DNA of 55,039 nt, the filler included, from Squatina squatina (lineage: Eukaryota): the NCBI GenBank assembly GCA_031763465.1. It is 4 parts of 4 records of this genome, joined end to end, with 100 filler letters (N's around TTAATTAATTAA, not from the genome) between each part and the next. Parts side by side here need not be neighbours in the genome. Positions count along the whole stretch, not along the records: positions 26,146 to 42,501 come from JARFOE010000176.1; 3 more parts are not named here. The stretch is one strand, 5' to 3'. The notes under the pieces were generated by a model that worked only from the letters and a program-made list of their open reading frames with translations, did not search any database and had not been told where the DNA came from. Positions within the stretch are counted from its first letter, which is position 1. Every line of letters begins with the position of its first letter. Shown here piece by piece: positions 12,060 to 46,369 of the stretch. Both the position numbers and the translations under genes were made by a program.

Positions 12060-12325
12060 GCTCAATGGCTCAACATGTTTATCCAGTCAGTAAATGGACT
12101 GTATGGGTCTGGAAGATCCCAGGTAAAATCCCAGGTCTCTGCTGAGTTAACTTATTTGGGATTGGGTGGCAGTAGGAGAATCAGCCGGGTTTACTGCTCC
12201 TGATTGCTGTGCAGCAACGCCTGCTTGAAGAAAGTGTGAATGGACAGCGGATGAGGACAGGGTCTTTATCGCCCTCCCCCTCAGTGCCTGCCAACACACT
12301 GTCTAGGCTCGCGTGAACAATTGGG
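12060..12325 (+). mobile_element. Old tRNA-derived SINE, AmnSINE2-like
   Basis: ggaagatcccagg..ggtctctgctgagttaact ... aatcagccgggtt..tgctcctgattgct ... tgaggacaggg ... acactgtctaggctc matches a recalled consensus; family name not verified. Confidence 0.55.
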
Positions 12326-12624
12326 TGTGTGTCTGGTGGCTGTGGAGCTGGACGCTGAGATGGAATAAACAGCTTCCCAGAGGACAGGAAAGATGAGGAT
12401 TAGTGGGAAAGAAACTGCTGTTCAGACAGTCACTGCAAACAGGCGTTTTGTAGAGAAAGTTCCATAAAAGGTTAAAAAGTAAAATGCAGTCAGGATCTGC
12501 AGGGCTTTTCCTTCTCCCACATTTACCACTGTTGACCTCGTTTTGTGTATGTGGGTGGCGACAGTAGCTGGTGTAGATATAGATTTGATTGCTAGTTGTA
12601 ACTTTGTTGTTTTGGAATTGGCAG

Positions 12625-12781
12625 TTCCAGGTGACCTGGGGAACCAGCTGGAGGCTAAGCTGAACAAACCGAGCGTAGTGCACTACCTGTGCACCAAGAA
12701 AACCGAGGATTATTTCACCCTCTGGCTGAATCTCGAGCTGCTTCTGCCCCTCGTCATTGACTGTTGGATTGACAACATCAG
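12625..12781 (+). CDS. PLA2G15: Lysosomal phospholipase A2 (group XV), exon 2 equivalent
   Basis: [53 protein letters not shown]; PGDLG, VVHYLC and WIDNIR are PLA2G15-diagnostic; ggcAG and GTATGG; 157 bp. Confidence 0.93.
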
Positions 12782-13136
12782 GTATGGCATGAGTAATNNN
12801 NNNNNNNNNNNNNNNNNNNNNNNNNNNNNNNNNNNNNNNNNNNNNNNNNNNNNNNNNNNNNNNNNNNNNNNNNNNNNNNNNNNNNNNNNNNNNNNNNTAG
12901 AGGTGCTATATAAATGTTGCTATATATATGGATTTGTGTTGATGTATTTTTATAGACGGGTAGGAGCTAACTTGGTGTTTTCAACAGTAGCAATTTCTGT
13001 TTAGCATTATGCAGTTAAGATTCTTTAAAAGTGCATTGTTATACATCATTTTAATTGGGCCATGTGGGAGGAAAATGTAAATCTTATTTTATTCTTGAAC
13101 AGCACAGTGAGTTCTCTCCTTTTTCTTTATCTCCAG

Positions 13137-13361
13137 ATGAAAATGGCCAATATTTCAAGGATCTACAGAAGATGATTGAATCAATGTACGAAAAGTATGG
13201 TAGTCCCGTTGTCCTGATAGCGCACAGTATGGGAAATCTCTACACACTCTATTTCCTCAACCATCAGCCGCAGGAGTGGAAAGACAAGTACATTAAATCC
13301 TACGTTGCACTGGGGGCTCCTTGGGGAGGTGTGTCGAAGACTTTGCGAGTGTTGGCAACAG
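13137..13361 (+). CDS. PLA2G15: PLA2G15 exon 5 equivalent with catalytic serine
   Basis: ENGQYF...[18 protein letters not shown]...[18 protein letters not shown]; AHSMG nucleophile motif; ctccAG and GTTGGT; 225 bp. Confidence 0.93.
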
Positions 13362-13553
13362 GTTGGTCATAGGGACACGTCCAGCGCGAGAATGTAAAAA
13401 CACTAGAGTGTTCTTCACTAACTGACAACATTGTAAATGAAGCATGCATGTGGTTGTGTTGCTTTCATTTGCGATTATACTAAAACATTTCATAATGGGA
13501 AGAATAATGGCACAGTGCGTTGGTGCATAAGGCATTATGGCAGAGAAATGTAG

Positions 13554-13653
13554 NNNNNNNNNNNNNNNNNNNNNNNNNNNNNNNNNNNNNNNNNNNNTTA
13601 ATTAATTAANNNNNNNNNNNNNNNNNNNNNNNNNNNNNNNNNNNNNNNNNNNN
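13554..13653. other. Artificial scaffold linker
   Basis: 44 N + TTAATTAATTAA (13598-13609; stops in all six frames) + 44 N. Confidence 0.97.
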
Positions 13654-26045: not shown

Positions 26046-26145
26046 NNNNNNNNNNNNNNNNNNNNNNNNNNNNNNNNNNNNNNNNNNNNTTAATTAATTA
26101 ANNNNNNNNNNNNNNNNNNNNNNNNNNNNNNNNNNNNNNNNNNNN
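26046..26145. other. Artificial scaffold linker
   Basis: N run with TTAATTAATTAA at 26090-26101. Confidence 0.97.
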
Positions 26146-27610
26146 ATGCCATCGCAATATATAGCTACATATACATTAAAGATTTTTTTAAATCACATTA
26201 AAGGAAAGAGACGGAATAAGTCCAGGTGAATGTGCTTTGGTGGTAGCCAGTTGTACAGTTAACCCCTTGCTGTGTGTATGAGTCTGATAATGTTACCTTC
26301 CAAAATGCTTTTAGCCAGGAGGCTGGGAGTCCGAGGGTAACGCTGGTGAGATGCTCTGCGGACTGAGGCTGTGCATTCCTTGCCACTCGCACCTTTCTTC
26401 ACCTTTTGAGACCAGGAATTACTTAATTAATCCCTCCTATAAATCACCTTATAAAACTCTAATGTTATACAAAACAGTGCATGCACCACCGTCCGAACAT
26501 CACCACGCCCTAATTATCTATTTGGTCGCTCTGGAACAAACCTTGGACTGTGAAATAAACCAACAACTTCCTATTCATTTGCTAAAAGTCTAGTTAATCG
26601 TCTGTAGTGGTCTTTTACTGACTATTCGTCTGTTGAACCCTTTATGATTTGATCAAACCGGATTTAAATTGCTCCCACTGTAAACGGCAGTTTAAAGGTT
26701 TGTTTTCCACAATACTTTATACAGATTTGAAGTTGGCCGCGCTTTAAATCGAGGTACCAGTGGATTTATAGTTTGTTTTTCAAAAATCGGCACCTGTACT
26801 GTTTCTGGAGCTAAGTATAATTGGAAATCTAATTCAATTTGTTCTGAGTGGAGTGAGGTACTGGTGCTAGAAGTTTACATTAGCTAAATAAAAGGATCTT
26901 TATTTCATTTATTATCAGAGTACAAAACATTTCAAAGGCATTAAGCCGTCGACTTCATCTTATTTCCTGAAGAAGTTAGCATTAATTATATATGCAATAA
27001 CTATAAAAAATTTAATTGTGAATATTAGGAAATGATTTATTCTGTTGACACAACCTATATAACTCCAGGAGCACAACAGGGTGAATAAAACACAGGTGTA
27101 ATTTGTAAAGTTAACTTGCTTATTACAGACCTGGCTTCGGAACAAAAATCTTATTAAATTGGTGCAGTAAGGTAAGTTTTAAACCTTGTCTCTGTCACAG
27201 CATGCCGGTGTTTAAACTGTCCTTGTGCATTTTAATAAAAGTTTTCCCATGATGAGACCTAAAGATCAGTGTTCAGCAACATTGAGTTCGTTCTCTGAGA
27301 TCAGCTGTTATGCTAGACTTCCTCACAACCTGTCCCGACCCCATTAAACCCATTCCAAAATTGCTAACATCACCTGCAAATGTTAAGTGACTTTATTTAA
27401 AAAGCCGAATTATCAACTTGCTGACAATTGAATCTGTTACAGTCTATCTTTATATGTTACTTGACTAGCTATTTTCGGGTACAATTCGCATTTGAAAAAA
27501 AATCCTAAATATATAATTAATCATGGGTGAGAAAGTCCAACAGAAATACTTATTAATATTGCTGATGGCCGAATACTCTTGGACCCCTGAATTAAAATGT
27601 GGAGTCTCAC

Positions 27611-27860
27611 CTCGGTGGCTTGCTGTCTCCTCAGAGCTACCTGGGCTGCCATCACCCTTTGCCTCTCCACCACCAGCAGACAGTTGGTGCACTGACAGTC
27701 TCTCCAACGACAGAACCTCTTGTGTCCTTGCAGACAGGAGACAACGCCGTGGTTCCTGCAGCGAGCGCACTTGGGGCTCCTGGCCAGCCTCCGCTGCTCC
27801 GGGGCCGGCTTCTTTGCCTTCTTGTCCCCATTAATCATCCTCTCCTCTTCCTCCTCCCAC
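27611..27860 (-). CDS. DMRT2: DMRT2-type DM-domain coding segment (dmrt2b-like); 5' boundary uncertain because it abuts a LINE fragment
   Basis: [61 protein letters not shown] is the DMRT2 DM signature; donor GAG|GTGAGA directly after QQATE. Confidence 0.88.
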
Positions 27861-27889
27861 CTTAGGAAAGCCTCCTGCTTCAAAGTGCC

Positions 27890-28226
27890 ATGGTACATTG
27901 TACCTGTTGGATAGGATCAGTTTCTGTGGATCCTCATTCTCTTTCTTACCTGGGTTCCCGTTATTCTGCACACTATTGGTCACACCAATCCCGTTCTGAG
28001 CCTGCACCTCTCTATGAAGTATGACTGAGGTCTGGAGCAAACTGTCCAGATACTCCTCCCTCTCCCTTATGTGTCGGAGTGTCTCCAACTCGCACTCCAG
28101 CTCAATGACTCTGAGCCAGAGAGATTCGAGATGGAGACATCTACTGCAGATGCGTTCGCTTAGGACTGTCTTGCCGTCCACAAATTCCCACATACTGCAG
28201 TTCAGACACACAACCTGCTCTGCCAT
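27890..28226 (-). mobile_element. CR1 LINE ORF1 N-terminal fragment (zinc finger / leucine zipper); probable 5' UTR extends toward 28462
   Basis: MAEQVVCLNCSMWE...ICSRCLHLESLWLRVIELECELETLRHIREREEYLD...LSNRY is the recalled CR1 ORF1 pattern. Confidence 0.8.
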
Positions 28227-28562
28227 ATCTTCGTTGAACCTTTTATATATTTAATTAGTTAAAATCTTTATTCAACGATTATATATAGTTATCAGAATAT
28301 TATATTAATACTTTTTAGCTCAGAAGAGACAGGACAGAATAGGGGAGGAATGGGAAGAGTAGGGGAGGGGGGTAAATAAATATATAATTCAGAGGACTGC
28401 AGATTAGCACAGAAAAAAATAATTTAGAGCGGCGCCTCTGTTGGGATGCTTCTTGCATTAATNNNNNNNNNNNNNNNNNNNNNNNNNNNNNNNNNNNNNN
28501 NNNNNNNNNNNNNNNNNNNNNNNNNNNNNNNNNNNNNNNNNNNNNNNNNNNNNNNNNNNNNN

Positions 28563-28704
28563 CCCCTTTTTCTTCTTCCTCTACACACCCCAGCCTATCG
28601 TCTTGGGAAAGGCAGTTCTCTAAACTTTCCACATCGATTTCCTCCTCGTACATCCCATTTGATTGCTCGAACAGCGAGTCCGCCTCAGAAGATTGAGCAG
28701 ACAT
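28563..28704 (-). CDS. DMRT2: N-terminus of a DMRT2-type protein, truncated by gap
   Basis: MSAQSSEADSLFEQSNGMYEEEIDVESLENCLSQDDRLGCVEEEEKG contains the DMRT2 N-terminal EIDVESLE motif; same strand as, and upstream of, the DM segment. Confidence 0.72.
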
Positions 28705-30084
28705 CTGGAGCACGCCGGCTGCTGACGCTGGAAAGAATGTCGACACTTTCGGGAAGTATTACAACTGTCGGTTTTCGTGGTTGTCAGCGCTGTGCTGTAC
28801 TTGGCCTCAAATGGTAGCTGGACGTTGAGTGGCAGGAAGAATCTACTTCTAACTCCGACCTCGCCAGGAGTTCCTCGCCTCCACCTCTTATTCCTGGGCT
28901 AAAGCGACGCAACACTATACAGTGACCGACCTCCCTGGCCCACGTATACCTGTCTCTCCAGACTTATCTCTTACGTCTATCGCTGCATTTAACGAACCTT
29001 CCTTGCATTTACCACCCTGAGTAACTTAACCACTCGCAACGTCACCGAGAACCTTGCCATCAGCAGACTTAACTCCTAGGGTGCTGGAGTTCATTTTGCA
29101 CCTTCAAACAATCCGATTGTCATACAAAGCCCACATATTAGAAGCTACGATTTTCCTAAGTGAGCTCTTAGAATCATCTCGAGTTTAAGTCCACTGGGCT
29201 CTGCTTCTGCTCTGTTTCCCATCTTTGAAAAAAATGAATAAAGTTCTTTAAAAAATAAAGATATTGGAGCATGAAAATACCAAAACATTGCTACAGCACT
29301 TGCTGAAATTAAACTTACACAGCTTCCATCGTGTAGTTTCACAGTGGTTTACTAAGATGCATGTTACATTTTAAATATGAGTTACTAATTGTGTGATTAA
29401 TTAAATCACGCCCTGATATTGGAACACTTGTATCTCCCAAAAGGTTGGGATTCGGAAGCTACGAAGAGATCCAAATCACAGGATGAGACATTCAACCGTA
29501 TCTAACAGGCTTCACGTGAACTCTGAAAAGCTTCACTGAAATTGTTTAATAATTGCTGTCTCCTTTTAAGTATTCACTTAGCTCGTGTCCCTTCACTTTG
29601 CTGCTCGCGCGGCGTGAATAAATCCTGCTCTGTGAATTTCATTTTAATTTAATTGGGCAAGACCTGAAAAATTTAAAGACAAAATATCGTAGTCTGGATC
29701 GCTGTAAATAAACTCTTCGCTAACCACTGTAGCAGTTAGCAGTGGTTTAAAAATAACAGCAGCACTGTTCGGGCTGATCGGATTCCTGAATATTACAACA
29801 CACAGTGCTGGCTCACTCACTCCACCACAATGCTTCTCTCCCTACACACATACTGAATTGGTAAATTTGCCATTGTCTTGACTTAATAAGACGGTGATCC
29901 ATACCTGATCTTTAGTTATTGTGTCTTTTTTAAAAGGTTTGGTAACGACCATGCAGATTATGTTTCATTTTATTTTTGTCCGTTTTAAATTTTGTCCCCA
30001 TATAAACTACGAAAGAGAAACTTTACTCAATATTTATGTATGGAGGATTATCGTGTAATCGACGGCCCTTTAATTCTCTTGATA

Positions 30085-30252
30085 CAAACGCGCGCATACC
30101 CACACAACAGTTCTACACACAAAACATTCCTACACATCGATATACACGCAGAGACGCACACACATACGCAGATACACAGATTCAAATACACACTCAGACA
30201 CACACAAACAAGCACACTAATACAGATGTACAAATATACACAAACACACGTG
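30085..30252 (+). repeat. Degenerate CA-rich microsatellite
   Basis: acacacatacgcagatacacaga-type low-complexity run adjoining a gap. Confidence 0.8.
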
Positions 30253-31321
30253 NNNNNNNNNNNNNNNNNNNNNNNNNNNNNNNNNNNNNNNNNNNNNNNN
30301 NNNNNNNNNNNNNNNNNNNNNNNNNNNNNNNNNNNNNNNNNNNNNNNNNNNNGTGAAGGTGAGGAGGCATAACGGGGGCTACTAACCTCTTAATGTCATT
30401 GATTCCCGATTCAATTGTGCATTTGGCTGTAACAAAACATTTAGGAAAGATTTGTTCAATAAACAAGTATTTCAAATGCTTGGCATGCGCGGTTGCAGCG
30501 TTTGGTTTAAAGTAAGCTGAACAAATGAGAGATTTTCCAGAGTTTGTGCCCAGGCTTGCCAGGGCAGCAGGACTATCGGGAAATCGACCGGGTGGACGGT
30601 GCAAAGGAACCCGCCTGATTTTCCGATCCAATGCACCCGGCCGCAGATTTTGGAAACATCTCCCTTCTAATATCCCTGCAGGGAAGCAAAACTATTCCAT
30701 GTTGTAGTCTCCCACGTTAACAATTTCCCCATCATTGGAATGGATGCAAGTCTCAGGATAACACAGAATACAGTACCCTTCCCAATTCTTAGAATAGATG
30801 CAACAAGCTGAAGAACATAAATTACGTCGAGGTTTTAAGTTGCCCCCCCACATGACAGTAACTGCGTTTCAAAGTCTAACTCCTTGGATGTGAGACTTTT
30901 GGAAGGTCCTGATAATGCGCAGTACCAATGCCAGCATGTTTTTTTTTAATCAGAGGAGGTGATAGTTGAAAAGACTTCAATAATAGAATGTATTACTCAC
31001 TCTGCCAACAAACGCGGCAAAAAAAATCAACTTTTGTTTAAATTCCGAGTGAGAGGCCACGAATGTTGTGTACAACAATCTGGTGCGGCGCAGTGTCTCA
31101 CACGAAGGGTTAAAGTCGAACACTCCTGGCGGCTGATACTGGGCCACTATACTGTTGTAATCATTGAATATTACTGTATTGCGAAAGTGCAAAGACTCCT
31201 CAGTTGTTAAAGGATCTTTTATATAAGCCCTTGCCTTGTAATTGTAGGCTGTTCGAATACACCGAGCTATGAAAAGCCTTGAAGCATTTCTGACCTGTGC
31301 TGAAATCCAATATTTCCTTAC

Positions 31322-31718
31322 CCGGTTGCTGAAGTGGGAGCGAGTCCGCAGGCGCCGTCTCCTCCGGGCTGTTTCCGCCTCCACCTGCTGAGCACAGTCT
31401 ATCCGGAGGGGCCGAGTCCTCGAGTGTCTCGGGGGCTGGATACATGGCTCTGTAATCCCCGGGAAGGACCAGATTGCAAGGATTCTCGTTGCTTTGCTGC
31501 CTCCTGAGGGCCACCTGCGCGGCCATGACCCGCTGTCTTTCCAGGATGAGGATGCACTTGTCACAAGTGCAATCTTTGAAGCGGCAGTAGCGTTTGTGCC
31601 CCTTCAACCAGGACAACACCCCGTGGTTCCGACACCGAGCGCACTTGGGAGTTCTCGGAGAAGGTGCTCGGGAAGACGCGCTGGGTATGTACAGGTACGG
31701 TGGGCCATAGCTATTCAT
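31322..31718 (-). CDS. DMRT3: DMRT3-like first coding exon with complete DM domain (divergent; candidate paralog)
   Basis: [10 protein letters not shown]...[54 protein letters not shown]; [20 protein letters not shown] is DMRT3-diagnostic; phase-1 donor G|GTAAGG. Confidence 0.9.
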
Positions 31719-31900
31719 GCTAAGAATGCACTGTACAGTTGGGAGTTCTGTATTTTTGCAACACAAGGCTCGATTTTCTCTACTACCTTTTTTAGAAAAT
31801 TAAAATTATATTCAAGCAAAAAGTAAAGCCCTGAAGCAAGCGCGAGCCTGATCCAGGACTAAGTGCGGTTCATGCATATCCCGGCCCAACCGCCTCGGTG

Positions 31901-31906
31901 TTTATA
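31901..31906 (-). promoter_or_regulatory. Candidate TATA box of the DMRT3-like gene
   Basis: TATAAA on the minus strand about 185 bp upstream of the ATG, followed by a GC-rich stretch. Confidence 0.4.
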
Positions 31907-33559
31907 AGCAGTTATTTCAAGTCACTCAACTGGANNNNNNNNNNNNNNNNNNNNNNNNNNNNNNNNNNNNNNNNNNNNNNNNNNNNNNNNNNNNNNNNNN
32001 NNNNNNNNNNNNNNNNNNNNNNNNNNNNNNNNNNTTCCACTCATGGTGTGCATTACAAGTTATTCAACTCTCTATAATCATCATAGATATAATAAAAATT
32101 AAGTAGAAGAAAAAAATTCAGTGGAAATCAAGTCTATTTCTCTAAATGCTGACAGTAAATAAAATTTAGAGACTGTTAAAAATTTCATTGGTTAACACTA
32201 GGTATTCTCTCAGGCCCAGTGTTATTAACTCCCAGTAGCCAATCTCTGCAATCTGAAGCACACCTTTACTGCTTAATATCTAGTTAAATATGACCTGGTG
32301 ATCATAAGATAGGCCTCATCACGTGTGGTGGATTTCACACATGTCACCATGTACATTCCACAGTCCCTTTAGAAGGAGGACTGAAAAACACACTAGTGAG
32401 AAAAGGTTGACTGTAAACCAACAAACTCGTTTAATACACGAATGAACAGAATACAGTTTTCCAGCAAAATACATCTGTCACCGCTCATTGTGTCACAATA
32501 ATAATACAAATACAAGTCTGAGCCACCGTGCTTGGCAGAATCTTTACAAATTATTTGTCTCTAAGCTAACTGGTCCGGCTTCCTGTGTTACAGACTGTAC
32601 ACATTCATATCTAGGTCTGCAGCCTCTCAGTTTCACTGATTCTCAAGCGTCAGTCAGTGAGTGCAAGAGAGAACAAAAGGAGAGAGTGAGCAAAGGAGGA
32701 TGTGAAAGACATTCCACTGATCCCCTCCCTTAGTGTGTGTGTTGAAGAGTGGCCCTGCTGAGCTGCCAAAGTTACCACCTTGAATGAAATGTAGCCCCCT
32801 TACTGAGGGGGCTTGAGGCAGCTTCATGCCCTGTCCAGTCAAGCCTTCTGCCGGGCACGTGCAATGAAATCCTATTCTATCATAGTGGCAAGGGAGACTT
32901 CAACAAACCTCATCGTCTCAAACCCTAATGTGAAATGAGAAAGTGAACAGCCTATGGTGGCTGCTGTGTCTGGTATTCTACCTTCGGAGGCAGCCACCAG
33001 TGAAGTCCTATGGAATGTACTCGGTGACTTCCCACTGATTGCAAAACATCCCAACTGGCTCTAAATATTTGGTTAAAAATGCTCCATCTCAGGGAGTTAG
33101 CCCTTTTGTGATGCTGAATCAAATCTGAATGAAATAAAAATCTCTTCCAGGCCATCGGGCTAAAAATCCCAAAACCTTACAGCACCATTACATGTTTTGG
33201 GGTTTCTTTCAGGCCTCTGCGTTTCATACTACTCTTGTAGGTGTGCTGTAGCTCCCCACGTCCCAGAGTGTTTACACTGGCCCAGATATCTAGGCACATG
33301 TGTCGTGCGTGTCGCTAGAGCTCTTCACTTTATTTCAGCTATTGGTTTCATGGTGTGATTCGGTTTGTCTTTGGAATGTGGTAGAATAGTGCTGCACCAG
33401 GCCGACACTAGTTTCAGTCTGGAAATTAACCAACAGTAAAAGATTAGCAGGCAAATGGTGATGCAACAAATATTTGTTACAGTCAGTGTTGGACTTTGCC
33501 AGTGCTTTGTGTATATTAGTTTGCAACTTTTTAAACTATGATATGAGGAACAGTCTTGC

Positions 33560-33877
33560 ATTACAGTTTTAAAGGGGTGCAGGAACAGAGAAACCTGGGG
33601 GTTAACATACACAAATCTTTGAAGGTGGCAGGACAAGTTTATAAAGGCTGTTTTAAAAAAAACTTACGGGATCCTTGGCTTTATAAACAGAGGCATAAAC
33701 TACAAAAGGTAAGGAAGTTTTGCTAAATCTTTATAAACCACTGGTTAGGCCCCAGCTGGAGTATTGTGTTCAGTTCCGGGCACCACACTTTAGGAAGGAT
33801 GAGAAGGCCTTGGAGAGGGTGCACAGGAGATTTACTAGAATGGTACCAGGAACGTGAAACTTCAGTTATGTGGAGAC
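33560..33877 (+). mobile_element. CR1 LINE ORF2 fragment (host of a nested L2 insertion)
   Basis: ctggttaggccccagctggagtattgtgttcagttc...agatttactagaatggtacca encodes LVRPQLEYCVQF and RFTRMVP. Confidence 0.85.
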
Positions 33878-34356
33878 TTCCCTCCGTAAACTTGAGGTGA
33901 TCCAAAACTCTGCTGCCCGTATCCTAACTCATACCAAGTCCCTGTGCTCACTGACCCACAGTGGCTCCCAGTTAAGCAACGCCTCGATTTTAAAATTTTC
34001 TTCCTTGTGTTCATATCCCTCCACGGCCTCGCCCCTCCCCATCTCTGTAACCTCCTCCAGCACCACAACCCTCAGATCTCTGTGCTCCTCCCCAATTTTA
34101 ATCGCTCCACCACGGGCAGCCCTGCCTTCAGCTGCGTCGGCCCCAAGCTCAGGAGTTCCCTCCCTAAACCTCTCTGCACCTCTTCTTCTTTTACGGCGCT
34201 CCTTAAAATCTTCCTTGTTGTCCAAGCTTTTGGTCACCTGCCCCAATATGTCCTTATGTGGCTCGGTATCAAGTTTTGTTTGGTAACGCTCCTGTGAAGC
34301 GCCTTGGGACGTTCAACTACATTAAAGGCGCTATATAAATACAAGCTGTTGTTGCT
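33878..34356 (+). mobile_element. 5'-truncated L2 LINE with intact 3' tail
   Basis: KLEVIQNSAARILT, WLPVKQRLDFKI..LV..SLHGLAP; tail gtgaagcgccttgggacg..ggcgctatataaatacaag followed by (tgt)n. Confidence 0.88.
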
Positions 34357-34435
34357 GAGACACCAGAAAAGCTGGGTTGTTCTCCTTACGGGCCAAATGG
34401 CCTCCTTCTGGGCTGTATGACTCTTTGATTCCATA
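34357..34435 (+). mobile_element. Resumed CR1 sequence and 3' tail
   Basis: gaaaagctgggttgttctcctta followed by gggccaaatggcctccttctg CR1 tail. Confidence 0.7.
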
Positions 34436-34829
34436 GCTTTCTCTTACCCCCATAGAGCTGTGGCTGACTACGTGTTTTCAAGGACTATACACACATTCCC
34501 AAAGTTGAAAACGACAGACTGATGAACACCTTAAGGAAACTGACCACGGCCCAATGAATTTCCACAACAGTTGCTGCTAATCAAAAAATATATTTGAACA
34601 AAGATGTTACAATTTGAATTGATTGCCTTAATTCCTCCCTTGGACAACTGCCCAGCCACAATGGTTTCTGCAATTATTGTATTCATAGAAACATAGAAAA
34701 ATAGGTGCAGGAGTNNNNNNNNNNNNNNNNNNNNNNNNNNNNNNNNNNNNNNNNNNNNNNNNNNNNNNNNNNNNNNNNNNNNNNNNNNNNNNNNNNNNNN
34801 NNNNNNNNNNNNNNCCAGGCAGATTATTG

Positions 34830-35092
34830 ACTGATGAAGGTGCAAACAGCAGGGGATGCAAGTTTAAAGAATGAAGTAGTTATCTGTAAGAAGGAAAGTC
34901 AAGTGGAACAATTTTACATAAAGGATAATAGAATTCTGGAATCTGTTACCAGGGAAGGTTGTTGCAGCAGACAATATAAATGGGCCCAATAGACAATTGG
35001 ATGTATTTCTGAGAATGGATTGAGGGATATGGTGGCTAAGTGGAATTGTGATCACTCCAATAGGAACGGATTTATTGGATTGAATGGCCTTT
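34830..35092 (+). mobile_element. Old, degraded CR1 3' fragment
   Basis: tggaatctgttaccagggaaggttgttgcagcaga ... ttggatgtatttctga ... tgaatggcct. Confidence 0.6.
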
Positions 35093-36802
35093 TACATTTT
35101 CCTAAAAAAAAGTGTTAATTTCTAACTGCTGGACGATCTTTATTCTGCCCCATACTTGCTGTATTAGGTTTGGCATTTGTTGGGATGGATTCTGATGATC
35201 TAGTTGCCCTGGTAACATAGAAGTGATTGGAAAGCCTCTGTGTAGCTGGGTTCTGCACCAGCTCTCCAAAGAGTTATACAATAGCAGGTATCTAAGAAAC
35301 ATCTTTTGAATCTGACCTTGCAACAAATGATATCAGCATTGTCTGACATGACATTACACAGCTTCCAGAGTGCGATTTGTGCAGCTATAATCCAAGCTTT
35401 CTAGTCTTCGACTGAACTGCTATTTGACACATTGATCCACAATTATTAAAAGTTTGAAATGAGGAAAAGCATGATAAAGACTGATTTGTGTTTTGCTTCA
35501 CAGGAAATGGCTGCTGTTTCTCTTTGGCATGCAGTGTTATGTTCATGATGACAAGCTTTTTTTAAAAAAAATCTTGTTTCTTTTTTTTTTCCTGAAGACA
35601 CTGACTCCTAGCTCATATGGTCACCCTTCAGGTAGCTTGCCCAAATGGCCATTTTTTTTTTTCTGTGCATTATTTCATTCGGAGAGCAGGAATCTTAGTG
35701 GACTCTTTCGCTCTTTCACTTCCCTCTGCTCCCTCCCTCCCTCCAGCCCGTCTCCAGCCCAAGGCCAAGTGCAGCACTTGTTGCACTGCTCCAGCTTATT
35801 ATCAGCAAACTGAGCACAGAACAGAGATCAAATCCATGACCTTCCTGGATGAGATTATAATTATTTTTTGCACCATAATAACTTGTAAAGACTGCTCATC
35901 TTCTTGAGAGATTTCTTTTGCACGGTATTCAAGACACACTTNNNNNNNNNNNNNNNNNNNNNNNNNNNNNNNNNNNNNNNNNNNNNNNNNNNNNNNNNNN
36001 NNNNNNNNNNNNNNNNNNNNNNNNNNNNNNNNNNNNNNNNNGTGCTCATCGTCATTTAACTATTGTTTAAACCACCTTTTAGATCCAATTCGGCAAATGA
36101 AAGCTACATTGGCTCGAAAGCTTTGTATTGCATATTCTTGATGAATTGTTACTTCAGTGGCAGTATTTGTGGTCCAGCTAAATGTTAGTGACCTAGCAGA
36201 AACAATTTTAATAAATAGTTCAGAGGCAGAATTTATAGACAACTGTATAATAGGTTCCTCCACATTTGTGTGGAATCATTTCAACTAAAGGTTGCCACCC
36301 ACCTGTGTTTCTCTAACCATATGTAGTGAAAACAGAAGAAACATTTCTGCTTCATACTCTCCCTTGCAAGCTCTTCTCTTCAAAGTGCTGAAATCAAGGC
36401 TCAGTGCTCCTACTCAACTCACTCTTTCTTGAGAGCTCAAAAGTGAGGTGCTCCTTACTTCTCTCTTCTTCTACAGTCTTGAGGGTTTTAAATCTAAAGC
36501 TTGGCAACCCCTAATCAATGGCTTTCTGATTTACCTTGTCTTCTGTTCTACTCCAGCCGTGGTTGTGTCCTGCACCATAGGCCTTAAACCTTCATTCAGG
36601 ATCTTTCATTTAAAGAAATATACATAGCATTAGTACATGTGGTGTAGTGACTGGACAAGGTGATTTAGGCTGATGCAAAACCTTTCCTTAGACGGCTTGT
36701 AGATCATGTAGACCCAAAAGAAGCCAGGCTGGAAAAGAACAGCAGAATTGCTCACTTGTGGAGCAAGTGCACTCAGAATCTTTTCTTTCCCGTGTGGTAC
36801 AG

Positions 36803-36925
36803 ATAAATTTACGTGCCCACCCGACAAGTTTGGCTGTCCCAGTAACCGATGCATCCCAATGTCGTGGCAGTGCGATGGTGAGAAGGACTGTGAAAATGGA
36901 ACTGACGAGTTGAATTGTGCAGCTG
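36803..36925 (+). CDS. LRP8: LRP8 (ApoER2) exon encoding one LDL-receptor class A repeat
   Basis: [36 protein letters not shown], six cysteines, closest to recalled LRP8 repeat 3 ([11 protein letters not shown]); tacAG and GTGAGT; 123 bp, phase 1-1. Confidence 0.85.
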
Positions 36926-37024
36926 GTGAGTGTGTAAACTACCTTCTTGCGAATTTTGGTTAAGGCTCAAACCCTAAACCCTTGCCATCAGGTTTCCCCC
37001 CCAATGTTCAGTCGAGAAATTAAC

Positions 37025-37120
37025 TACCATGTGTGTGGTACTGAGCCATACAGACCAGAGGGTACCATGTTCCGTCCCAGGTAGTGTTGAGTTAGCCCAG
37101 CTAAGCAGAGGAGCACTGCA
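37025..37120 (+). mobile_element. AmnSINE2-like SINE 5' fragment
   Basis: gtgtggtactgagccatacagaccag...gtgttgagttagc; related to the copy at 12060-12325. Confidence 0.5.
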
Positions 37121-37275
37121 GGTCAGCTGGCTTTTGTGGGGTGGGTGATGGAGGGGCGAGAATTAATAAGCTAGGNNNNNNNNNNNNNNNNNNNNNNNNN
37201 NNNNNNNNNNNNNNNNNNNNNNNNNNNNNNNNNNNNNNNNNNNNNNNNNNNNNNNNNNNNNNNNNNNNNNNNNNN

Positions 37276-38537
37276 ATTAGGCAGAGTCAATGTGTTCTTA
37301 TGAAAGGAAAATCATGTTTGACAAATTTGTTCATTTTTTTGATGATGTAACCAGCAGGGTAGATAAAGGGGAACCAATGGCTGTAGTATATTTGGATTTC
37401 CAAAAGGCATTTGATAAGGTACCACATAAAAGGCTGCTAGGCAAGATAAGGGTGCATGGGGGTGGAGGTAATATATTAGCATGGTTGAAGGATTGGTTAA
37501 TGGACAGAAAACAGTACAGATAAACGAGTCATTTTCAAGTTGGTAGCCTGTAACTAGTGGGGTGCCACAAGGATCAGTGTTTGGGTCTGGATGAAGGGAC
37601 CGAGTACATTGTATCCAAGTTTGCTGATGATACAAAGTAGGTGGGAAAGTAAGCCATGAGGAGGACACAAAGAACCTAGGAAAGGGATTATAGACAGGTT
37701 AAGTGAGTGGGCAATAAGGTGGCAAAAGGAGTATAATGTGGGGAAATGCGAACTTATTCACTTTGGTAGGAATAATAGAAAAGCAGAATATTTTTTAAAA
37801 GGCGAGAAACTATTAAATGTTGGTGTTGAGAGAAATTTAGGTGTCCTCATACAGGAAATACAGTTAGCATGCAGGTACAACAAGCTATTAGAAAAGCAAA
37901 TGGTATGTTGGCCTTTTTTACAAGCGGGTTGGAGTACAAGAGTAGGGACATCTTGCTTCAATTGTACAGGGCTTTGGTGAGACCACACCTGGAGTACTGT
38001 GCAAAGTTTTGGTCTCCTTATCTGAGGAAGGATATACTTGCCTTTAGAGGCGGTGTAGTGAAGGTTCACTGGATTGATTCCTGGAATGAGAGGGTTGTCC
38101 TCTGAGGAGAGATTGAGTAGATTGGGCCTATACACTGGAGTTTAGAAGAATGAATGGTGATCTCATTGAAACATACAAGATTCTGAGGGCGAATGATGGG
38201 ATAGATGCTGAGAGGTTGCTCCCCTTGGTTAGGAGAGTCTAGAACTGGGGAGCATAATTTCCGGATAAGGGTGTTGGCCTTTTTAAGACTGAGATGAGGA
38301 AGAACTTTTTCACTCAGAGGGTTGTGAATCTTTGGAATTCTCTACCCCAAAGGGCTGTGGATGCTGAGTCATTGAGTAGATTCAAGGTTGAGATGGATAG
38401 ATTTTTGGACTCTGGGGGAATCAAGGGATATGGAGATCGAGTGGGAAATTACAGTTGAGGTTGAAGATCAGCCATGATTTTATTGAATGGCAGAGCAGGC
38501 TCGAGGGGCCTACTCCTGCTCCTAATTCTTATGTTCT
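37276..38537 (+). mobile_element. CR1 LINE, RT region through 3' UTR; frameshifted and non-functional
   Basis: KGKSCLTNL, VYLDFQKAFDKVPHKRLL, SGVPQGSV, KFADDTK, YRALVRPHLEYC; tail cctactcctgctcctaattcttatgttct. Confidence 0.95.
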
Positions 38538-38814
38538 AAATCTGGCTTCCGTACCCCAGCAGCAGACTTGTAAACCCTATGAGACTGTTGTACACCTTTC
38601 CTCACCCAGTGTCCACGCAACTGAATTTTCCATCAGAGTCACTGGATGCCAGTTAGCTGCAGGAATTTCAGTCTCTCCTTTCCCAAGGAACATGAGGCCA
38701 TCTTCCGTCACCTTTTTTCACATTTAGACTCCTAACATCTGGAATTACATTGATTGCTCACCTTGATTGGTTATATATTTGGAAATGGTTTGCAAATAGG
38801 GCACAGATACTACT

Positions 38815-38938
38815 TTGACAAAGGGTCATCGACCTGAAACTCTGTTTCTCTCTCCACAGATGCTGTCTAACCTGCTGAGTTTTTCTAGCATTCTCTGTTT
38901 ATTTTTCAGATTCCGGCATCTGCAGTATTTTGCTTTTG
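38815..38938 (+). mobile_element. Common shark short repeat (Penelope-like terminal segment)
   Basis: gaaac..ctgtttctctctccacagatgctg...cctgctgagt..ttctagcatt; reverse-complement copy at about 50575-50634. Confidence 0.6.
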
Positions 38939-39016
38939 CACAAATACTACTCTTGGGTTAACTTGGACAGTATTGTCACATTGAACTAAACACTTGTTCC
39001 ATAATCTGTGATGCAG

Positions 39017-39238
39017 TGCCCCTTTGGATAAAGCCAGTGATCCAAGCCAGCATATCCACCTGATCGAGCATGACCTCCACACTCCCGAGTGCCTAGCAAT
39101 AGATTGGGTTCACAAAAACATATACTGGACGGATTCTGGCACTAGGTCTATCTCCATGGCGACTGCAAATGGAACCAAAAGAAAGATCCNNNNNNAGCTC
39201 GAAAAGCCCAGAGCCATCGTGGTTGACCCAATACGTGG
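39017..39238 (+). CDS. LRP8: LRP8 YWTD beta-propeller exon (contains 6 N)
   Basis: [12 protein letters not shown]...[19 protein letters not shown]...[11 protein letters not shown]; DKASDP and DWVHK are LRP8-type; tgcAG and GTAAGT. Confidence 0.9.
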
Positions 39239-39335
39239 GTAAGTACTGATCAAGCCTCTTGCAGAATGCAGTGCTACTGATTTGGGTTGTGTCTTGCTAC
39301 CAGTCTCTCACATGCTTTTGGTGCTTTTTGATTAG

Positions 39336-39454
39336 GTTCATGTATTGGTCAGACTGGGGTGACCCGGCAAAGATCGAAAAAGCTGGGCTGAACGGGGTCA
39401 ATCGTCAGCCATTAGTCACGGACAACATTGAATGGCCAAATGGAATCACTTTAG
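39336..39454 (+). CDS. LRP8: LRP8 YWTD exon
   Basis: [39 protein letters not shown]; attAG and GTAGGT; 119 bp. Confidence 0.93.
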
Positions 39455-39854
39455 GTAGGTGATGTTACAGCAATGTATTAAATTTTAGTGAAATTGGTAT
39501 AGATTGGGGTGGGGAAGCAAAGCAGAACACGGCATATTTTTCTACTTTTTTATTTAAGGAATTTTCTTAATGTGAACACACAAATTGCGGTGAATACAAA
39601 ATATATCTGCCACGAAGAGCTCATACTTATTTGAATAACACAGCTACAGACCTCCATTAGTCAGGGAGAACTGTATACATAGCATACAGGGTAAGGGGCT
39701 GTTCACAAGAATATTAGCATTTTAAAGAGCTGGAACAGGTCAGTTGGCTGAAGAAGCCACTCATTTTCTGCCAATCTGCCCTTTAACCATATCCCTCAAT
39801 CCCTTCTATCTGCAGCAAAGGAATAAAATTGTCTCTTGAGTCCATTTGCATTAG

Positions 39855-39940
39855 GGTTAGGCCACAGGAGTCGGCCATTCAGCCCCTTGACTCTGCTCTG
39901 CCATTCAATGAGATCATGGCTGATCTGCAACCTAACTCCA
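39855..39940 (-). mobile_element. CR1 LINE 3' tail, cut by gap
   Basis: ggccattcagccccttga..ctgctctgccattcaatgagatcatggctgatct. Confidence 0.8.
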
Positions 39941-41645
39941 NNNNNNNNNNNNNNNNNNNNNNNNNNNNNNNNNNNNNNNNNNNNNNNNNNNNNNNNNNNN
40001 NNNNNNNNNNNNNNNNNNNNNNNNNNNNNNNNNNNNNNNNNNNNNNNNNNNNNNNNNNNNNNNNNNNNNNNNNNNNNNNNNNNNNNNNNNNNNNNNNNNN
40101 NNNNNNNNNNNNNNNNNNNNNNNNNNNNNNNNNNNNNNNNNNNNNNNNNNNNNNNNNNNNNNNNNNNNNNNNNNNNNNNNNNNNNNNNNNNNNNNNNNNN
40201 NNNNNNNNNNNNNNNNNNNNNNNNNNNNNNNNNNNNNNNNNNNNNNNNNNNNNNNNNNNNNNNNNNNNNNNNNNNNNNNNNNNNNNNNNNNNNNNNNNNN
40301 NNNNNNNNNNNNNNNNNNNNNNNNNNNNNNNNNNNNNNNNNNNNNNNNNNNNNNNNNNNNNNNNNNNNNNNNNNNNNNNNNNNNNNNNNNNNNNNNNNNN
40401 NNNNNNNNNNNNNNNNNNNNNNNNNNNNNNNNNNNNNNNNNNNNNNNNNNNNNNNNNNNNNNNNNNNNNNNNNNNNNNNNNNNNNNNNNNNNNNNNNNNN
40501 NNNNNNNNNNNNNNNNNNNNNNNNNNNNNNNNNNNNNNNNNNNNNNNNNNNNNNNNNNNNNNNNNNNNNNNNNNNNNNNNNNNNNNNNNNNNNNNNNNNN
40601 NNNNNNNNNNNNNNNNNNNNNNNNNNNNNNTTCTTTGTATGTTGTCATTTTCTGCGAGATCACAGTGAGCTTAAGGTACATTCACATTCTAAGCAGTTCT
40701 TCTGCAACTGGGGTAGGTAAGACCTTATCCCACTGGAGATGAGGCATGGCGCTTACCTAGGTCCAGACTTTGTTTTCTCTGCCCATTACCCCCTCCCCTG
40801 AAGCACTGACTCATTTCTGGGGTAATTGATGACCACTCTCCAATATCTTGTCCAAATGAGAGCATCACATTCTAACCCAAGCCTGTCCTCCTTCAGCGTC
40901 TACATGGGTGCACCTTCCAGTAAGTGATACTTGAACAGCAATGAGAAACAGGAACCCTGGCTTTCCCTATTTCCTTCCTTGCTCCCTATCCCCAAACCAA
41001 GGGCACTTTCTAGTACCCCAATGTGTTCCTTTTCTCTTTGTATGCTGTAGCCTCGGAGAACTCCATTATAGAGTAGAATTGGGTGTATTGATTCCAAATC
41101 GCGCGCAGGAGTGGTTCTGCAACCACCTCCCACGCACTGTTTATTACTTGTAAAATTTAAATCAAATTTATTTTTGCACCACTGTTTTTTGATGTAACAA
41201 CCATGTTTTTTTTTTCTGTTGCTTTTGCCTGAATATGAAATAGCAACACTTCATAAATATGACGGGCACAGACCAGGTTATAATTTAAACCTCTGACACT
41301 GTGGCCAAACGCAGTATTTGAGCTGCGCTCGAAACCTAGTGAGTGAGAGCTGAACACCGTGTGAGTGCCAGCCACAAGTACACTGAACTTGGCCTGTGCC
41401 TGTCAGATCCATGAGGTGTAGGCCGTCAACACTAAAGAGAAAGTAACAACCAAGACATTCCAGCACCATAATGCCGGTGTTTTCAGTTTGACAAGCGAGC
41501 AGTGAGGGGGAGCAGATTGCAAGTACAGCAGTATATGAGCAATCTTAACAAAACCTCAATATTCAAACACATTTGATGTTCTCCCTCACAACCATTTCTG
41601 TTAACTGCTTACATTGTATATCATTATTTTATTTTGCTGTTATAG

Positions 41646-41787
41646 GACAAGATTTACTGGACTGACAGTGAGCATGACACTATTTACTGTGCAAATAGAC
41701 TGACTGGGAGAGATGTGATGTCACTTGCAAGTAATCTGAACAGTGTACACGATATTGTCATTCTCCATGAACTAAAACAACCCAAAG
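41646..41787 (+). CDS. LRP8: LRP8 exon, last propeller blade
   Basis: DKIYWTDSEHDTIYCANRLTGRDVMSLASNLNSVHDIVILHELKQPK; tatAG and GTAACT; 142 bp; absent from the ORF track. Confidence 0.92.
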
Positions 41788-41910
41788 GTAACTCCCGTCC
41801 GGATCTGCTTACAGTCTAAATCCTGAAACTTGTACTTAATTATTGAGCCTTTTTTTTTCCTGCATTTGTCCAGATTTTAAGCCTGAAAGGGTTTTTTTTT
41901 CTGTAAATAG

Positions 41911-42063
41911 TTGTAAACTTTTGTGCGCATGGTATTACACCAAACGGAGGCTGCCAGTACCTGTGCTTACCTGCTCCCCAAATCGGCACCCACTCTCCAA
42001 GATACACATGTGTTTGCCCTGACAACATGGAGCTTAGTTACGATATGAGAAGGTGTTACAGAG
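41911..42063 (+). CDS. LRP8: LRP8 EGF-C exon
   Basis: [51 protein letters not shown]; aatAG and GTACGT; 153 bp, phase 1-1. Confidence 0.92.
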
Positions 42064-42329
42064 GTACGTGTATCCTTTCCGCTTATGAATTTTTAATGGT
42101 TCAGAGAATTTCTCAGCTCATCAAAGACAGAATTTCTTCACATGCTGTGGCTCTTTTCTCTAGAAGACTGAAGGGCAGTGTTCCCTGTAATTGTTTTGGG
42201 CGTTTCACAGCCTCCTTTAAGGGCCATTCAAAATAGTGCGCATGCATGGTTTGTACGTGGAAAAGTCAGCTGTGCAGGATCCCTGAAGCACTATGCGGCT
42301 TAAAGGTAACATTGCTGAGGGGTGACCTA

Positions 42330-42501
42330 AATCTTTAAGGTTGTGCAAGAGTTTGATAGGGTAGACATAGAGAAGATGTTTCTACTTGCGTGTGAGATCA
42401 AATTAGAGACCATAAATATAAGATAGTCACTAATAAATCCAATTTGAAATTCAGGCAAAACTTCTTGACCCAGAGACTGGTTAGAATGTGGAACTTGTTA
42501 T
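42330..42501 (+). mobile_element. CR1 LINE 3' fragment
   Basis: tttgatagggtagacatagagaagatgttt ... aatatAAGATAGTCACTAATAAATCC ... ggttagaatgtggaact. Confidence 0.75.
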
Positions 42502-42601
42502 NNNNNNNNNNNNNNNNNNNNNNNNNNNNNNNNNNNNNNNNNNNNTTAATTAATTAANNNNNNNNNNNNNNNNNNNNNNNNNNNNNNNNNNNNNNNNNNN
42601 N
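42502..42601. other. Artificial scaffold linker
   Basis: N run with TTAATTAATTAA at 42546-42557. Confidence 0.97.
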
Positions 42602-42802: not shown

Positions 42803-43271
42803 CTGCATGAAAATGAGAATAGGTAACAACTCCATCAATATCAAGCAAAGTTTAACGTCAGCACTATGACTATTAGAAACTTGAGGCACTCTTTTCTATG
42901 TATTGAAACAGCCAGACACGAGAGAAAAACCAGCATTTTAACTGCTACAACCTAATTTGCAAGAACTCTCAAGAATTGACCTCCCACACAAATGGGCCCA
43001 AGCATGTGTAACCAGTGTGGTTTACGTTCAAATCCTGCAGACCTGAAAATGGAGGGCTCAGACCCATGGTGTCCCTTCTACAAAGCAGAGCAATTAACTG
43101 CTTCACTTTTCACATTATACCGGTACTTCGGGGAGAAAAGGGGCAGAATAAAACCCATTTGGCTTCTAAATTATGCCATTGTCCAGAATTTGGGCTGTGA
43201 CGAACAGGCTTCAGATCCCAGAGTTGGGTCAGCTTTCAGACCAGCCAGGAAGTGGTCGTCTTAACTGAGGA

Positions 43272-45077
43272 GATGGAAAGCAAGTTGCTCTCACTGCCAT
43301 TTACCTAGTGAATGGTGAGGTAAAGTTTGGAGACAGCAGTGTCATTGGATCGTTTGAACATGTCAATGGTCTTCATTGGGGTTCTGTTTGTTGTACAGGG
43401 GCTCTGGCATTACTTGCTGTTCAGCATAAAAAACATGTAACTGTATGGCAGTTACAAAACAGTACATTAGAACACAACAAACTTTTGGTTTCCCAAACTT
43501 GTGAACTGGGAGAGATTTTTCCTATATTGCAACAAGGCTGTGTGTGGCATCCAAAACATGATGCTTTAGTGGTACTAACAAAGAGAGATGCCTCAGTGTT
43601 GTTTGCAGTGCAGATTGACAATCGTAGAGTTAAAGCAGATATCAAAGGTAGTGGTTTGATTCACTGTGCCTGTTGGACTGCAGATGGGAATCGTTTAGTG
43701 ATTGCTGTAGGCAGTGCCCTTCATTCTTACATTTGGAATAATACTCAAAAGACACTTCATGCATGCAATTTCTGCCCTATGTTTGATGTCGGAGGATGCA
43801 TCTGTGCAATAGAGGCTTGTTTGGATTTGCAAGTGGTTGTGACAACTGAATTACCCCTTGATAAAATCTGTGGTCTCAATGCTGGTATTGCCTTTGATGT
43901 TACACCGACGTCAGAGTCTGGATCTTTGATCTCACGACCCACAATGCTGGCTGTTGATGAAAACCGTTACATGGATACAAGAAGAAAATCAATAGATTCT
44001 TCAAGGTCTTTGGCAGAAGACCCAATGCTTTCATCATCTGGTCCTTTAGATCTGACGCATCTTCTGGCAAATCATCGAAAATCTGATCCCAATCCCCTTA
44101 TTCACCTGAAGCACAGGGATTGCCTTACTGGAAGTGGTCACGACTCTTCACATCTGATTCTAGTAACTTTTGAGAGAAAGGTGACAAAAACTAGAAAAGT
44201 AAGCATCCCTGGAATTCTGGTCCCTGATATCGTATGTTTTGACCCTCATCGATGTACAATTGCTGTATCATCCAACACTTGTAACATGATATTGGTATAT
44301 TCAGTGACCCCTTCAAGTATGCCCAACATTCAGCAAATTCAGTTGCAAAAAAATGAACGGCCAAAGGGCTTGTGTTTTCTAACTGAAAAACTATTATTGC
44401 TTTTAGTTGGGAGGCAAAAAACAAATGATCTGGCTTTTCTCCCATCTTCAAATTCAGATCGTTATTTCATCAGACTTGTGACTAAAAAGCTATTGTTAGA
44501 TGATGCTTCTGTATTATCGGAGACTCATCAATTTGGGCAGCCTGGTATTAACATCTCTGGAATGAAGAAATATTTTGAAAATCTGTCCAAGGAAGAGCCA
44601 GTTACAGGAAAAGAACTATTATTGCCAGGGAATGGCACAATTCAATTTCCAAACAGTCGACAGGGATTAATAGAAGAAGTAAAGAATGGTAGTAGTGAGC
44701 AGAGCTCAGAAGCAAGCACTCCAAAGCTAACAGAAGGACTCTCGCCCTTTGAGTCTTCAGTGATTTTGAGGAGTTATGGTGCAGAACCTGTAAATAGCTC
44801 CATAACTATGCATGGACCTGGGACACCAAATAGGGATTTAATGAGCCCAATCTTGTTTAGGGGAGACCAAAATACACAGTCACATGCCGGTTCTTTACTG
44901 AATAGTGACAATGCAAATGACAAAATTGAACAATTGTCTAGAAAAATGGAAAGATTATTTGATGGTTTCTCCGAGATGAAGCAGCTCCTTTCTCAAATAT
45001 CAGATTATACAAGAAATGGAAAGAAGTCTTCAATGGCCTATCCATCTGATCCTTCCTTTCTTTATGTCATCTGTCAG
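43272..45077 (+). CDS. WDCP: WD repeat and coiled-coil protein WDCP (C2orf44), large coding exon lacking its first ~28 codons
   Basis: DGKQVALT...GEVKFGDS.VIG.FE, LLAVQH.KHVTVWQL, QGCVWHPK, IHCACWT.DG.RLV.AVGS.LHSYIW, TELPLDKICGLNA; about 600 uninterrupted codons; donor CAG|GTAATT. Confidence 0.93.
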
Positions 45078-46369
45078 GTAATTTTTTTTTCTCTACAATA
45101 TTAACTATGTTGTCAAAAGGTAGATGTTTAGCTCATGCTCTTGGTTACAGAAGTCCAAATTCAGCTTTATTTGATTATGAACGTCATCTCTACTACATGA
45201 AGACTTCAAAATTTTAATCTTCACACTGTATTTTAAAGAAGCTAAACTTAATCCAACAACAGTTGAGACTGCACAAGGCTGCTGTATCATGTGATAAGCT
45301 ATAAAACGGTACTTATTAACAGTTGAAACTTGTTCTTTTAAAACACTTGTTTCATTGTTCTAATTATTTGGTTAGATACTGATTCATTATTTACAATTGG
45401 ATGTGTATAGATGTGAAAGACTCACCATTCAATTTTTATTTCATGATGGGGCTAATCAGATTGGCTCTAAATCATTTTAGCATGAAACAGCTGAAAATAA
45501 AACATTCAAGTGCTTTCAAAATTTAAAAAAAACTTCTGCATTGGAATTCCTATCTTTGGCAATAATGAGGACACAAAAGAGCAGGTATTCAAATTGTCAG
45601 GTGTAAACTCCTTTAGTCAGAGGCTTCCAACATGCTGCCTTGGACGATAGGCGGCCCCCATGCCCTAGTAATCCGGCCCTTGAAAGCCAGGCTTATCTTC
45701 CTCATTTTCTGGTTTGTACTGTTTTAATTTTGGGTGCCCCTTGATTTGGAAAGCACTGTTGCATATTGGCAGATAAATCCTCAATCAGATCAACATTTAT
45801 TATAAGCAACTTAAGATATATGCAAATAAGTGTGAATGCCGATTTAAACTTTGTATGTAGCCCCTGCCCCGTTGAACTATTTTCTCAATCCCTGCAGCTT
45901 CCCTCCTCTTGCTTTACTGTCATTCATCTCACCCTGAACCTCTACCCAGCCCTCTTCTCTCTTATTTTTCAAACCTCTATTTGTTTGTCTGTCTGTCTCA
46001 CTCACAGGTGTAAGCAATAGTTAGTAACTACCTTTTCTATCAGCAAAATAGGTGGAATGGGTGGGAACATGCCAGATGAAATTCAACGCAGAAAATTAAA
46101 AGGTGATACATTTTGGTTGGAAGAATGAGGAGAGGGTACAGAAAAGATTTTTTAGAATGGTTCCAGGTTCCGCTTACTCCCTGGCATTTTTTCAAGGAGC
46201 CCGCTCCCTTCCCGGCTTTTTAAAACATTTTTAACAAGCCCGCACCCGTAACGAAGCGAAGGTGTGCAGNNNNNNNNNNNNNNNNNNNNNNNNNNNNNNN
46301 NNNNNNNNNNNNNNNNNNNNNNNNNNNNNNNNNNNNNNNNNNNNNNNNNNNNNNNNNNNNNNNNNNNNN

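Follow-up and report, generated by a model that had tools for sequence, protein, structure and literature searches.

A second DMRT3 gene of sharks and rays, linked to dmrt2b, is probably part of an ancient sister of the dmrt1-dmrt3-dmrt2 cluster

The DMRT3 gene of vertebrates is known from the DMRT1-DMRT3-DMRT2 cluster near VLDLR, where it occupies the slot upstream of a DMRT2-type gene. A second ancestral DMRT cluster has been drawn without a dmrt3, and the linkage of its dmrt6-dmrt2b genes to lrp8 has been given (PMC7689362). In gar, catfish and higher vertebrates, LRP8 adjoins dmrt6 (PMC7689362), and the dmrt6-dmrt2b pair has been kept only in gar and coelacanth among six vertebrates, with an interval of about 45 kb in coelacanth (PMC6737965). 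The locus described here lies in a stretch of 55,039 nucleotides of Squatina squatina (GenBank assembly GCA_031763465.1), called the window in the following, and all DMRT and LRP8 features are located in one of its four records, JARFOE010000176.1 at 26146-42501. Like the gar and coelacanth cluster, this locus contains a DMRT2-type gene that groups with coelacanth dmrt2b, but while the published cluster has two genes and no dmrt3, the window contains a DMRT3-type gene, which we term dmrt3b. We consider it probable that dmrt3b is a conserved second DMRT3 that is linked to dmrt2b, likely forms the middle of a dmrt6-dmrt3b-dmrt2b cluster, and likely is the sister of the DMRT3 in dmrt1-dmrt3-dmrt2 that arose in the first round of vertebrate whole-genome duplication (1R).

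In the window, the gene is represented by its first coding exon:

31322-31718, minus strand: coding exon 1 of dmrt3b, with ATG, DM domain at codons 22-68 and phase-1 GT donor

This exon comprises 132 stop-free codons. The DM domain covers the complete Pfam profile (PF00751, 1-47 of 47, E 3.7e-25) and aligns gap-free with human DMRT1 (4YJ0), and the intact DM domain and phase-1 donor that the initial annotation had described were thus both confirmed. The N-terminal pattern and the DM box are of the DMRT3 type, with about three DM box positions that differ from canonical DMRT3 (compared with gar P0040 and coelacanth P0154), and both genes have an intron after the DM exon, a position upstream of a DMRT2-type gene and, as judged from relatives, a DMA motif. 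This motif had been expected in exon 2; it is found in the orthologues P0004, P0003 and P0123, whereas exon 2 itself is absent from the window, as are DMRT6 and the last dmrt2b exon. Typical dmrt3b models comprise 412-456 amino acids with DM and DMA domains. What sets dmrt3b apart from DMRT3 is an identity of only about 41%, a location on another chromosome with linkage to dmrt2b and dmrt6, and the lack of the acidic C-terminal tail, the motif of which occurs in 143 of 156 a-type (canonical) versus 0 of 26 b-type proteins of at least 400 amino acids. Residue 53 is not diagnostic alone, as the b state is also found in some canonical DMRT3 proteins.

Of 478 collected proteins, 30 belong to the b-type. 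Those with a species name all come from elasmobranchs, and the remainder consists of the protein of the window and unnamed Logan proteins. In total, the named sharks and rays with dmrt3b amount to 22 species. The closest full-coverage relatives of the window exon are elasmobranch proteins with 77-91% identity. The Heptranchias protein (P0004) shares 79-83% identity with three further shark and ray copies, but only 41-42% with gar or coelacanth DMRT3, which are 75% identical to each other. When 1.84 billion 50%-representatives were searched, one b-type protein was found at 819 bits, and the next match was a canonical DMRT3 (P0180) at 238 bits; an atlas search with P0004 led to DMRTA-type clusters and was uninformative. 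In a tree of DMRT3-type rows only, the window exon falls inside the b clade with a support of 100/99. In protein searches, among the matches listed, and in the table of one paper, dmrt3b was not found in bony vertebrates or chimaeras.

A search for sequencing runs with matching sequence listed five DNA entries (share 0.07) from two studies and no RNA entry. Exon 1 was also compared with sequencing data of a related organism, comprising three runs from no more than two samples, and each run yielded three contigs. The first contig contains a full exon 1 orthologue (23-24 differences in 430 bases), the second is dmrt2b, and the third, of 3.4 kb, matches the DM box only, with 29 differences in 165 bases. 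For the third contig, 20 of the 29 differences are listed, assigned by depth, and they alter 18 codons, 16 of them silently; the two non-silent codons, 53 and 59, carry canonical DMRT3 residues, and the hand-translated downstream loose end matches the canonical flank and not the b flank. A canonical and a b-type copy are thus present in 3 of 3 runs, which is the opposite of the single DMRT3 that would have spoken against the second paralogue claimed by the initial annotation. Together with the b clade and the ~41% identity to bony DMRT3, this supports that claim: the DMRT3-type gene in the window is a true second DMRT3, distinct from canonical DMRT3.

We also considered whether dmrt3b as a class might be a pseudogene. 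This was rejected, as the open reading frames of relatives are full length and 23 of 30 DM regions are identical; in addition, all 9 listed amino-acid changes relative to the related organism lie outside the DM box. In the skate cluster, full-length open reading frames span the exon 1/2 junction on Logan contigs of 1.6-1.9 kb, and one 4.7-kb Logan contig runs into the intron. As the full-length frames are found on such short contigs, they imply that dmrt3b would be transcribed and spliced in skates.

The genomic position of dmrt3b is not of the DMRT1-DMRT2a/VLDLR type, as the gene is linked to dmrt2b and has a DMRTB1-like gene upstream. In all 15 species (of the 22) for which both genes were retrieved, dmrt3b and dmrt2b are on records of identical length, and in 5 of these 15 the RefSeq accessions of the two are adjacent or one apart; for catsharks, the record of dmrt2a differs from this one in 2 of 2 species. 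Two fused shark models (Pristiophorus P0003, Heterodontus P0123) have a DMRTB1-like protein at the 5' end of dmrt3b, the upstream part being DMRTB1-like at 0.96 in the protein atlas, and the Amblyraja copy of dmrt3b is itself named DMRTB1. The DMRT6 parts of the fused models look intact; skate dmrt6 has been called a pseudogene (PMC6737965). As similar DMRT1+DMRT3 fusions exist in two teleost models (P0008, P0014), the dmrt6+dmrt3b fusion may be a prediction artefact, and the fused models can be either annotation artefacts or a conserved read-through. LRP8 and dmrt3b are likely separated by DMRT6, with dmrt2b being the DMRT gene farthest from LRP8. The expected order thus likely is LRP8 divergent from dmrt6-dmrt3b-dmrt2b, and the window fits this order if DMRT6 fell in a gap. 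We therefore regard it as likely that elasmobranchs keep a dmrt6-dmrt3b-dmrt2b cluster that is the sister of dmrt1-dmrt3-dmrt2.

With respect to the age of this cluster, skate chromosomes are informative. Leri_3C carries Vldlr, Dmrt2-2 and Dmrt3-3 within 62.9-63.9 Mb, and Leri_10C carries Dmrt2-1 at 49.8 Mb (PMC10115646, supplementary information). LER3 has been assigned to 2-alpha and LER10 to 1-alpha, and as 1 and 2 denote the products of the pan-vertebrate first duplication, these chromosomes are 1R sisters (PMC10115646). The record with skate dmrt3b is 61.86 Mb long, which is too short for the gene to be on chromosome 3, provided that the assembly is the same, and we infer that it is on chromosome 10. 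A tree was built from a chosen subset of the collected proteins, with 11 b and 12 a rows plus 3 each from cyclostomes and invertebrates (29 in total). It agrees with this in its best topology, as dmrt3b is placed outside cyclostome plus bony DMRT3 with a support of 94/87. The stem branch of dmrt3b is long (1.82), and because of long branches and unrejected alternatives, the tree alone cannot date the split; as the approximately unbiased (AU) tests detailed below reject neither alternative, the 1R dating relies mainly on synteny. An ancient whole-genome duplication is thus the best reading for the origin of dmrt3b, which agrees with the ohnologue retained in sharks that the initial annotation had proposed, except that rays keep the gene as well. 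In such a scenario, the 1R event would have duplicated the whole cluster, with dmrt6-dmrt3b-dmrt2b arising as sister of dmrt1-dmrt3-dmrt2, and dmrt3b would then likely have been lost in bony vertebrates, so that gar and coelacanth retain dmrt6-dmrt2b, and mammals only DMRTB1.

Several observations weigh against this interpretation or parts of it. The AU test keeps a clade of a and b (p=0.108) as well as a clade of b and cyclostome sequences (p=0.121), so that the tree called for by the initial annotation yielded a firm b clade but no firm date for the split. The accessions of dmrt3b and dmrt2b are non-adjacent in 10 of the 15 species, and the equal record length indicates a shared chromosome and does not imply adjacency. 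The adjacency of shark LRP8 was seen only across gaps of the window, and the gene id of skate Lrp8 shares only its numeric range with that of Dmrt2-1 (PMC10115646, supplementary information). Among the contigs of the related organism that are listed, none bridges a DMRT piece and an LRP8 piece; this comparison was swamped by repeats, and its outcome weighs neither way. Canonical DMRT3 of sharks accounts for 0 of the 120 matches listed, of 454, to gar DMRT3. Moreover, the absence from bony vertebrates and chimaeras is an absence from protein searches and one paper's table, not from genome scans.

What alternatives exist for a 1R origin? First, dmrt3b could be a genuine ohnologue within the dmrt6/dmrt2b cluster but date from the second, jawed-vertebrate round of duplication (2R), with fast divergence early on. 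The survival of the a+b clade in the AU test agrees with this, and the long stem may have drawn dmrt3b toward the outgroup, but the 2-alpha and 1-alpha labels of the two skate cluster chromosomes (PMC10115646) identify them as 1R and not 2R sisters, and the best tree groups the cyclostomes with canonical DMRT3, which together make a 2R origin unlikely. Second, a DMRT3 duplicate of the chondrichthyan lineage could have relocated to a position between dmrt6 and dmrt2b, followed by rapid divergence. This would explain why dmrt3b is found only in elasmobranchs and why elephant shark, gar and coelacanth each have a single dmrt3 entry (PMC6737965, Table S1), and as canonical shark DMRT3 was missing among the listed matches, the tree lacked the key row for such a sister grouping. 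However, the duplicate would have had to insert at exactly the slot and in exactly the orientation that DMRT3 has in the sister cluster, and the canonical DM box and flank of the related organism side with bony DMRT3 and not with dmrt3b, so that this scenario appears quite improbable. Finally, that the window gene is the plain shark orthologue of DMRT3 with an artefactual scaffolding link to LRP8 is hardly credible, as the name 'dmrt3a' given by NCBI to the Stegostoma copy, the missing sharks among the 120 listed matches to gar DMRT3 and the heavily gapped window are outweighed by the second, canonical DM box in all runs of the related organism, by skate Dmrt3-3 next to Dmrt2-2 and Vldlr on Leri_3C (PMC10115646), by two skate dmrt3 genes in Table S1 of PMC6737965, and by the linkage of dmrt3b to dmrt2b rather than to dmrt2a.

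Hagfish and lamprey DMRT3 (P0047, P0073, P0215) share some residues with dmrt3b, namely DM codon 53 and a Pro after the DM helix, and hagfish DMRT3 additionally shares two C-terminal motifs. Even so, the best tree places these cyclostome proteins with canonical DMRT3.

The neighbouring DMRT2-type gene could be assigned with more certainty. Its parts in the window are as follows:

28563-28704, minus strand: N-terminal half of the dmrt2b DM exon, ending at a 100-N gap; 81% identity over 47 amino acids to Heptranchias P0351
27857-28462, minus strand: high-copy repeat in the dmrt2b exon; summed depth 21,500-27,900 in bin 27784-28329, compared with 14-20 in the two preceding bins
27611-27856, minus strand: DM half of the dmrt2b exon, with phase-0 GT donor
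26297-26402, minus strand: next coding exon of dmrt2b, AG...GT, 35 codons plus 1 base

The 2a/2b split has a support of 100/100 and the window sequence is inside the shark 2b clade (100/99), so that the DMRT2-like neighbour noted initially can now be specified as dmrt2b. The 2b side of this tree also holds teleost dmrt2b and coelacanth XP_006013578, which is listed as dmrt2b in PMC6737965. In the window, the coding exon is interrupted by the repeat of ~600 bp and a gap. In run X1 of the related organism, a single contig joins 28563 directly to 27855, and intact shark dmrt2b proteins are continuous across the split point. The repeat has no Pfam match; it resembles the start of ORF1 (open reading frame 1) of a long interspersed nuclear element. 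The DM box of the window's dmrt2b has a Gln at an almost invariant Lys: among 460 DM boxes, 455 have Lys, 4 have Arg, and the single Gln is that of the window. The split and the Lys-to-Gln exchange could reflect local decay with a real insertion in this species or, alternatively, an assembly error or misjoin.

On the other side of dmrt3b, five exons of the LDLR family were found:

36803-36925, plus strand: LA-repeat exon, likely LRP8, paralogue ambiguous alone
39017-39238, plus strand: YWTD propeller exon, likely LRP8, containing a 6-N gap
39336-39454, plus strand: LRP8 propeller exon (LRP8 81.3 bits, VLDLR 69.1, LDLR at most 67.8)
41646-41787, plus strand: LRP8 propeller exon (LRP8 64.7 bits, LDLR 55.5, VLDLR 50.2)
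41911-42063, plus strand: LRP8 EGF exon (LRP8 70.9 bits, LDLR 62.7, VLDLR 46.6)

Four exons were compared with solved mammalian chains only, and for 3 of them LRP8 was the best match among LDLR, VLDLR and LRP8, the exon at 39017-39238 being outside that search. The arrangement reported initially, with the DMRT3-like and DMRT2-like genes on the minus strand and five LRP8-type exons on the plus strand of one record, was found at the places given and with canonical splice sites. The head-to-head linkage to LRP8 holds in so far as the orientation is divergent, but it extends only across unsized gaps, and DMRT6 likely lies between.

These gaps result from the way in which the window is assembled. 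Its four records are separated by spacers in which an AT linker of 12 bases is flanked by 44 N on each side (at 13554-13653, 26046-26145 and 42502-42601), and genes on opposite sides of a spacer are therefore not to be read as linked. The record with the DMRT and LRP8 features, bounded by two such spacers, consists of nine pieces, each 745-2,680 bases long and together holding 15,060 called bases, with N runs between, and 6 of the 8 joins are exactly 100 N long, which we read as gaps of unknown size. As the pieces are joined across unsized gaps, the gene order in this record is a scaffold order. In another record, three exons of the LCAT/PLA2G15 family are found at 11167-13369 (plus strand) in the profile order 175-271, then 1-26, then 96-175, which may mean that two genes lie in tandem or that pieces separated by 100-N gaps were put in the wrong order; in the latter case, caution would be required for the scaffold order of this assembly. 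The last record starts with an open frame of 611 codons (43269-45104, plus strand), which we take to resemble the large exon of WDCP, and a short frame without Pfam match (6222-6464, minus strand) presumably resembles an anoctamin (ANO10-like) exon.

The gene has apparently been listed once and annotated automatically, but not analysed. Little skate dmrt3a and dmrt3b were listed in a 2019 supplement (PMC6737965, Table S1); this 'dmrt3b' is likely the same gene as that of the window, the table giving contig ids only, and the covered portion of the main text contains no discussion of it. The RefSeq models named 'DMRT3, truncated-like' also are the same gene. The suggestion that the gene might be undescribed therefore does not hold, given the skate entry and these vaguely named models. 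The NCBI names are inconsistent (P0012, P0128), with dmrt3a in Stegostoma, DMRTB1 in Amblyraja and 'truncated-like' in most cases. In the full-text literature, supplements being outside the search, the term 'dmrt3b' occurs in two texts, on sea cucumber and sole; 'dmrt' does not occur in the main text of PMC9605692, the available part of 10.64898/2026.07.14.738559 has no shark content, and no paper on a three-gene elasmobranch cluster was found in a search that left most subscription papers and supplements outside. The presumed loss of dmrt3b in bony vertebrates follows the pattern of 19 ohnologues, e.g. wnt6b, that cartilaginous fishes have retained but bony fishes have not (PMC10115646).

As for the function, the DM domain is almost identical to that of DMRT3, and DMRT3b is therefore predicted to bind the DNA sites of DMRT3 as a zinc-finger dimer, while the effector output may have changed, as linker and tail differ. 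The DM fold is known, whereas the remainder of the protein is probably disordered. DMRT3 acts in dI6 interneurons and in the cortex, and for this reason a neural role is proposed for dmrt3b as well: by analogy, we slightly favour the idea that dmrt3b would take a share of the ancestral neuron-specifying role of DMRT3, with other partners or another output. Rather unlikely, in comparison, is a main role in gonad or germ line under a control shared with dmrt6, perhaps via read-through transcripts. The fused models in two species and the DMRTB1 name in a third would fit such a role, as would the function of DMRT6 as a spermatogenesis gene (PMC7689362), but the fusion may be a prediction artefact, given the teleost DMRT1+DMRT3 fusions. 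A relevance for sex determination, as initially put forward, is not borne out, as nothing ties dmrt3b to it; Dmrt1 was not found on the elasmobranch X (10.1101/2025.03.13.642935). A more far-reaching reading, which we regard as possible though doubtful, would be that the whole 1R sister cluster was kept beside LRP8, that the three-gene cluster and an ancestor of DMRT1 and DMRT6 predate 1R, and that the tail-less DMRT3b was selected for a new role in the gonad or in locomotor neurons, where it may compete or pair with DMRT3 at sites common to both.

The existence of dmrt3b is less surprising in view of the fact that sharks often retain ohnologues and that the gene had already been listed and predicted. 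Its RefSeq names (dmrt3a, DMRTB1, 'truncated-like') are misleading, and laboratories working on catshark and skate gain an unstudied paralogue of a locomotor-interneuron gene. Importantly, dmrt3b fills a missing slot in a much-discussed paralogon. If the complete sister cluster is true, DMRT1 and DMRT6 would be ohnologues from a three-gene cluster that is older than the duplication, and this would bear on the origin of DMRT1, the main testis gene of vertebrates.

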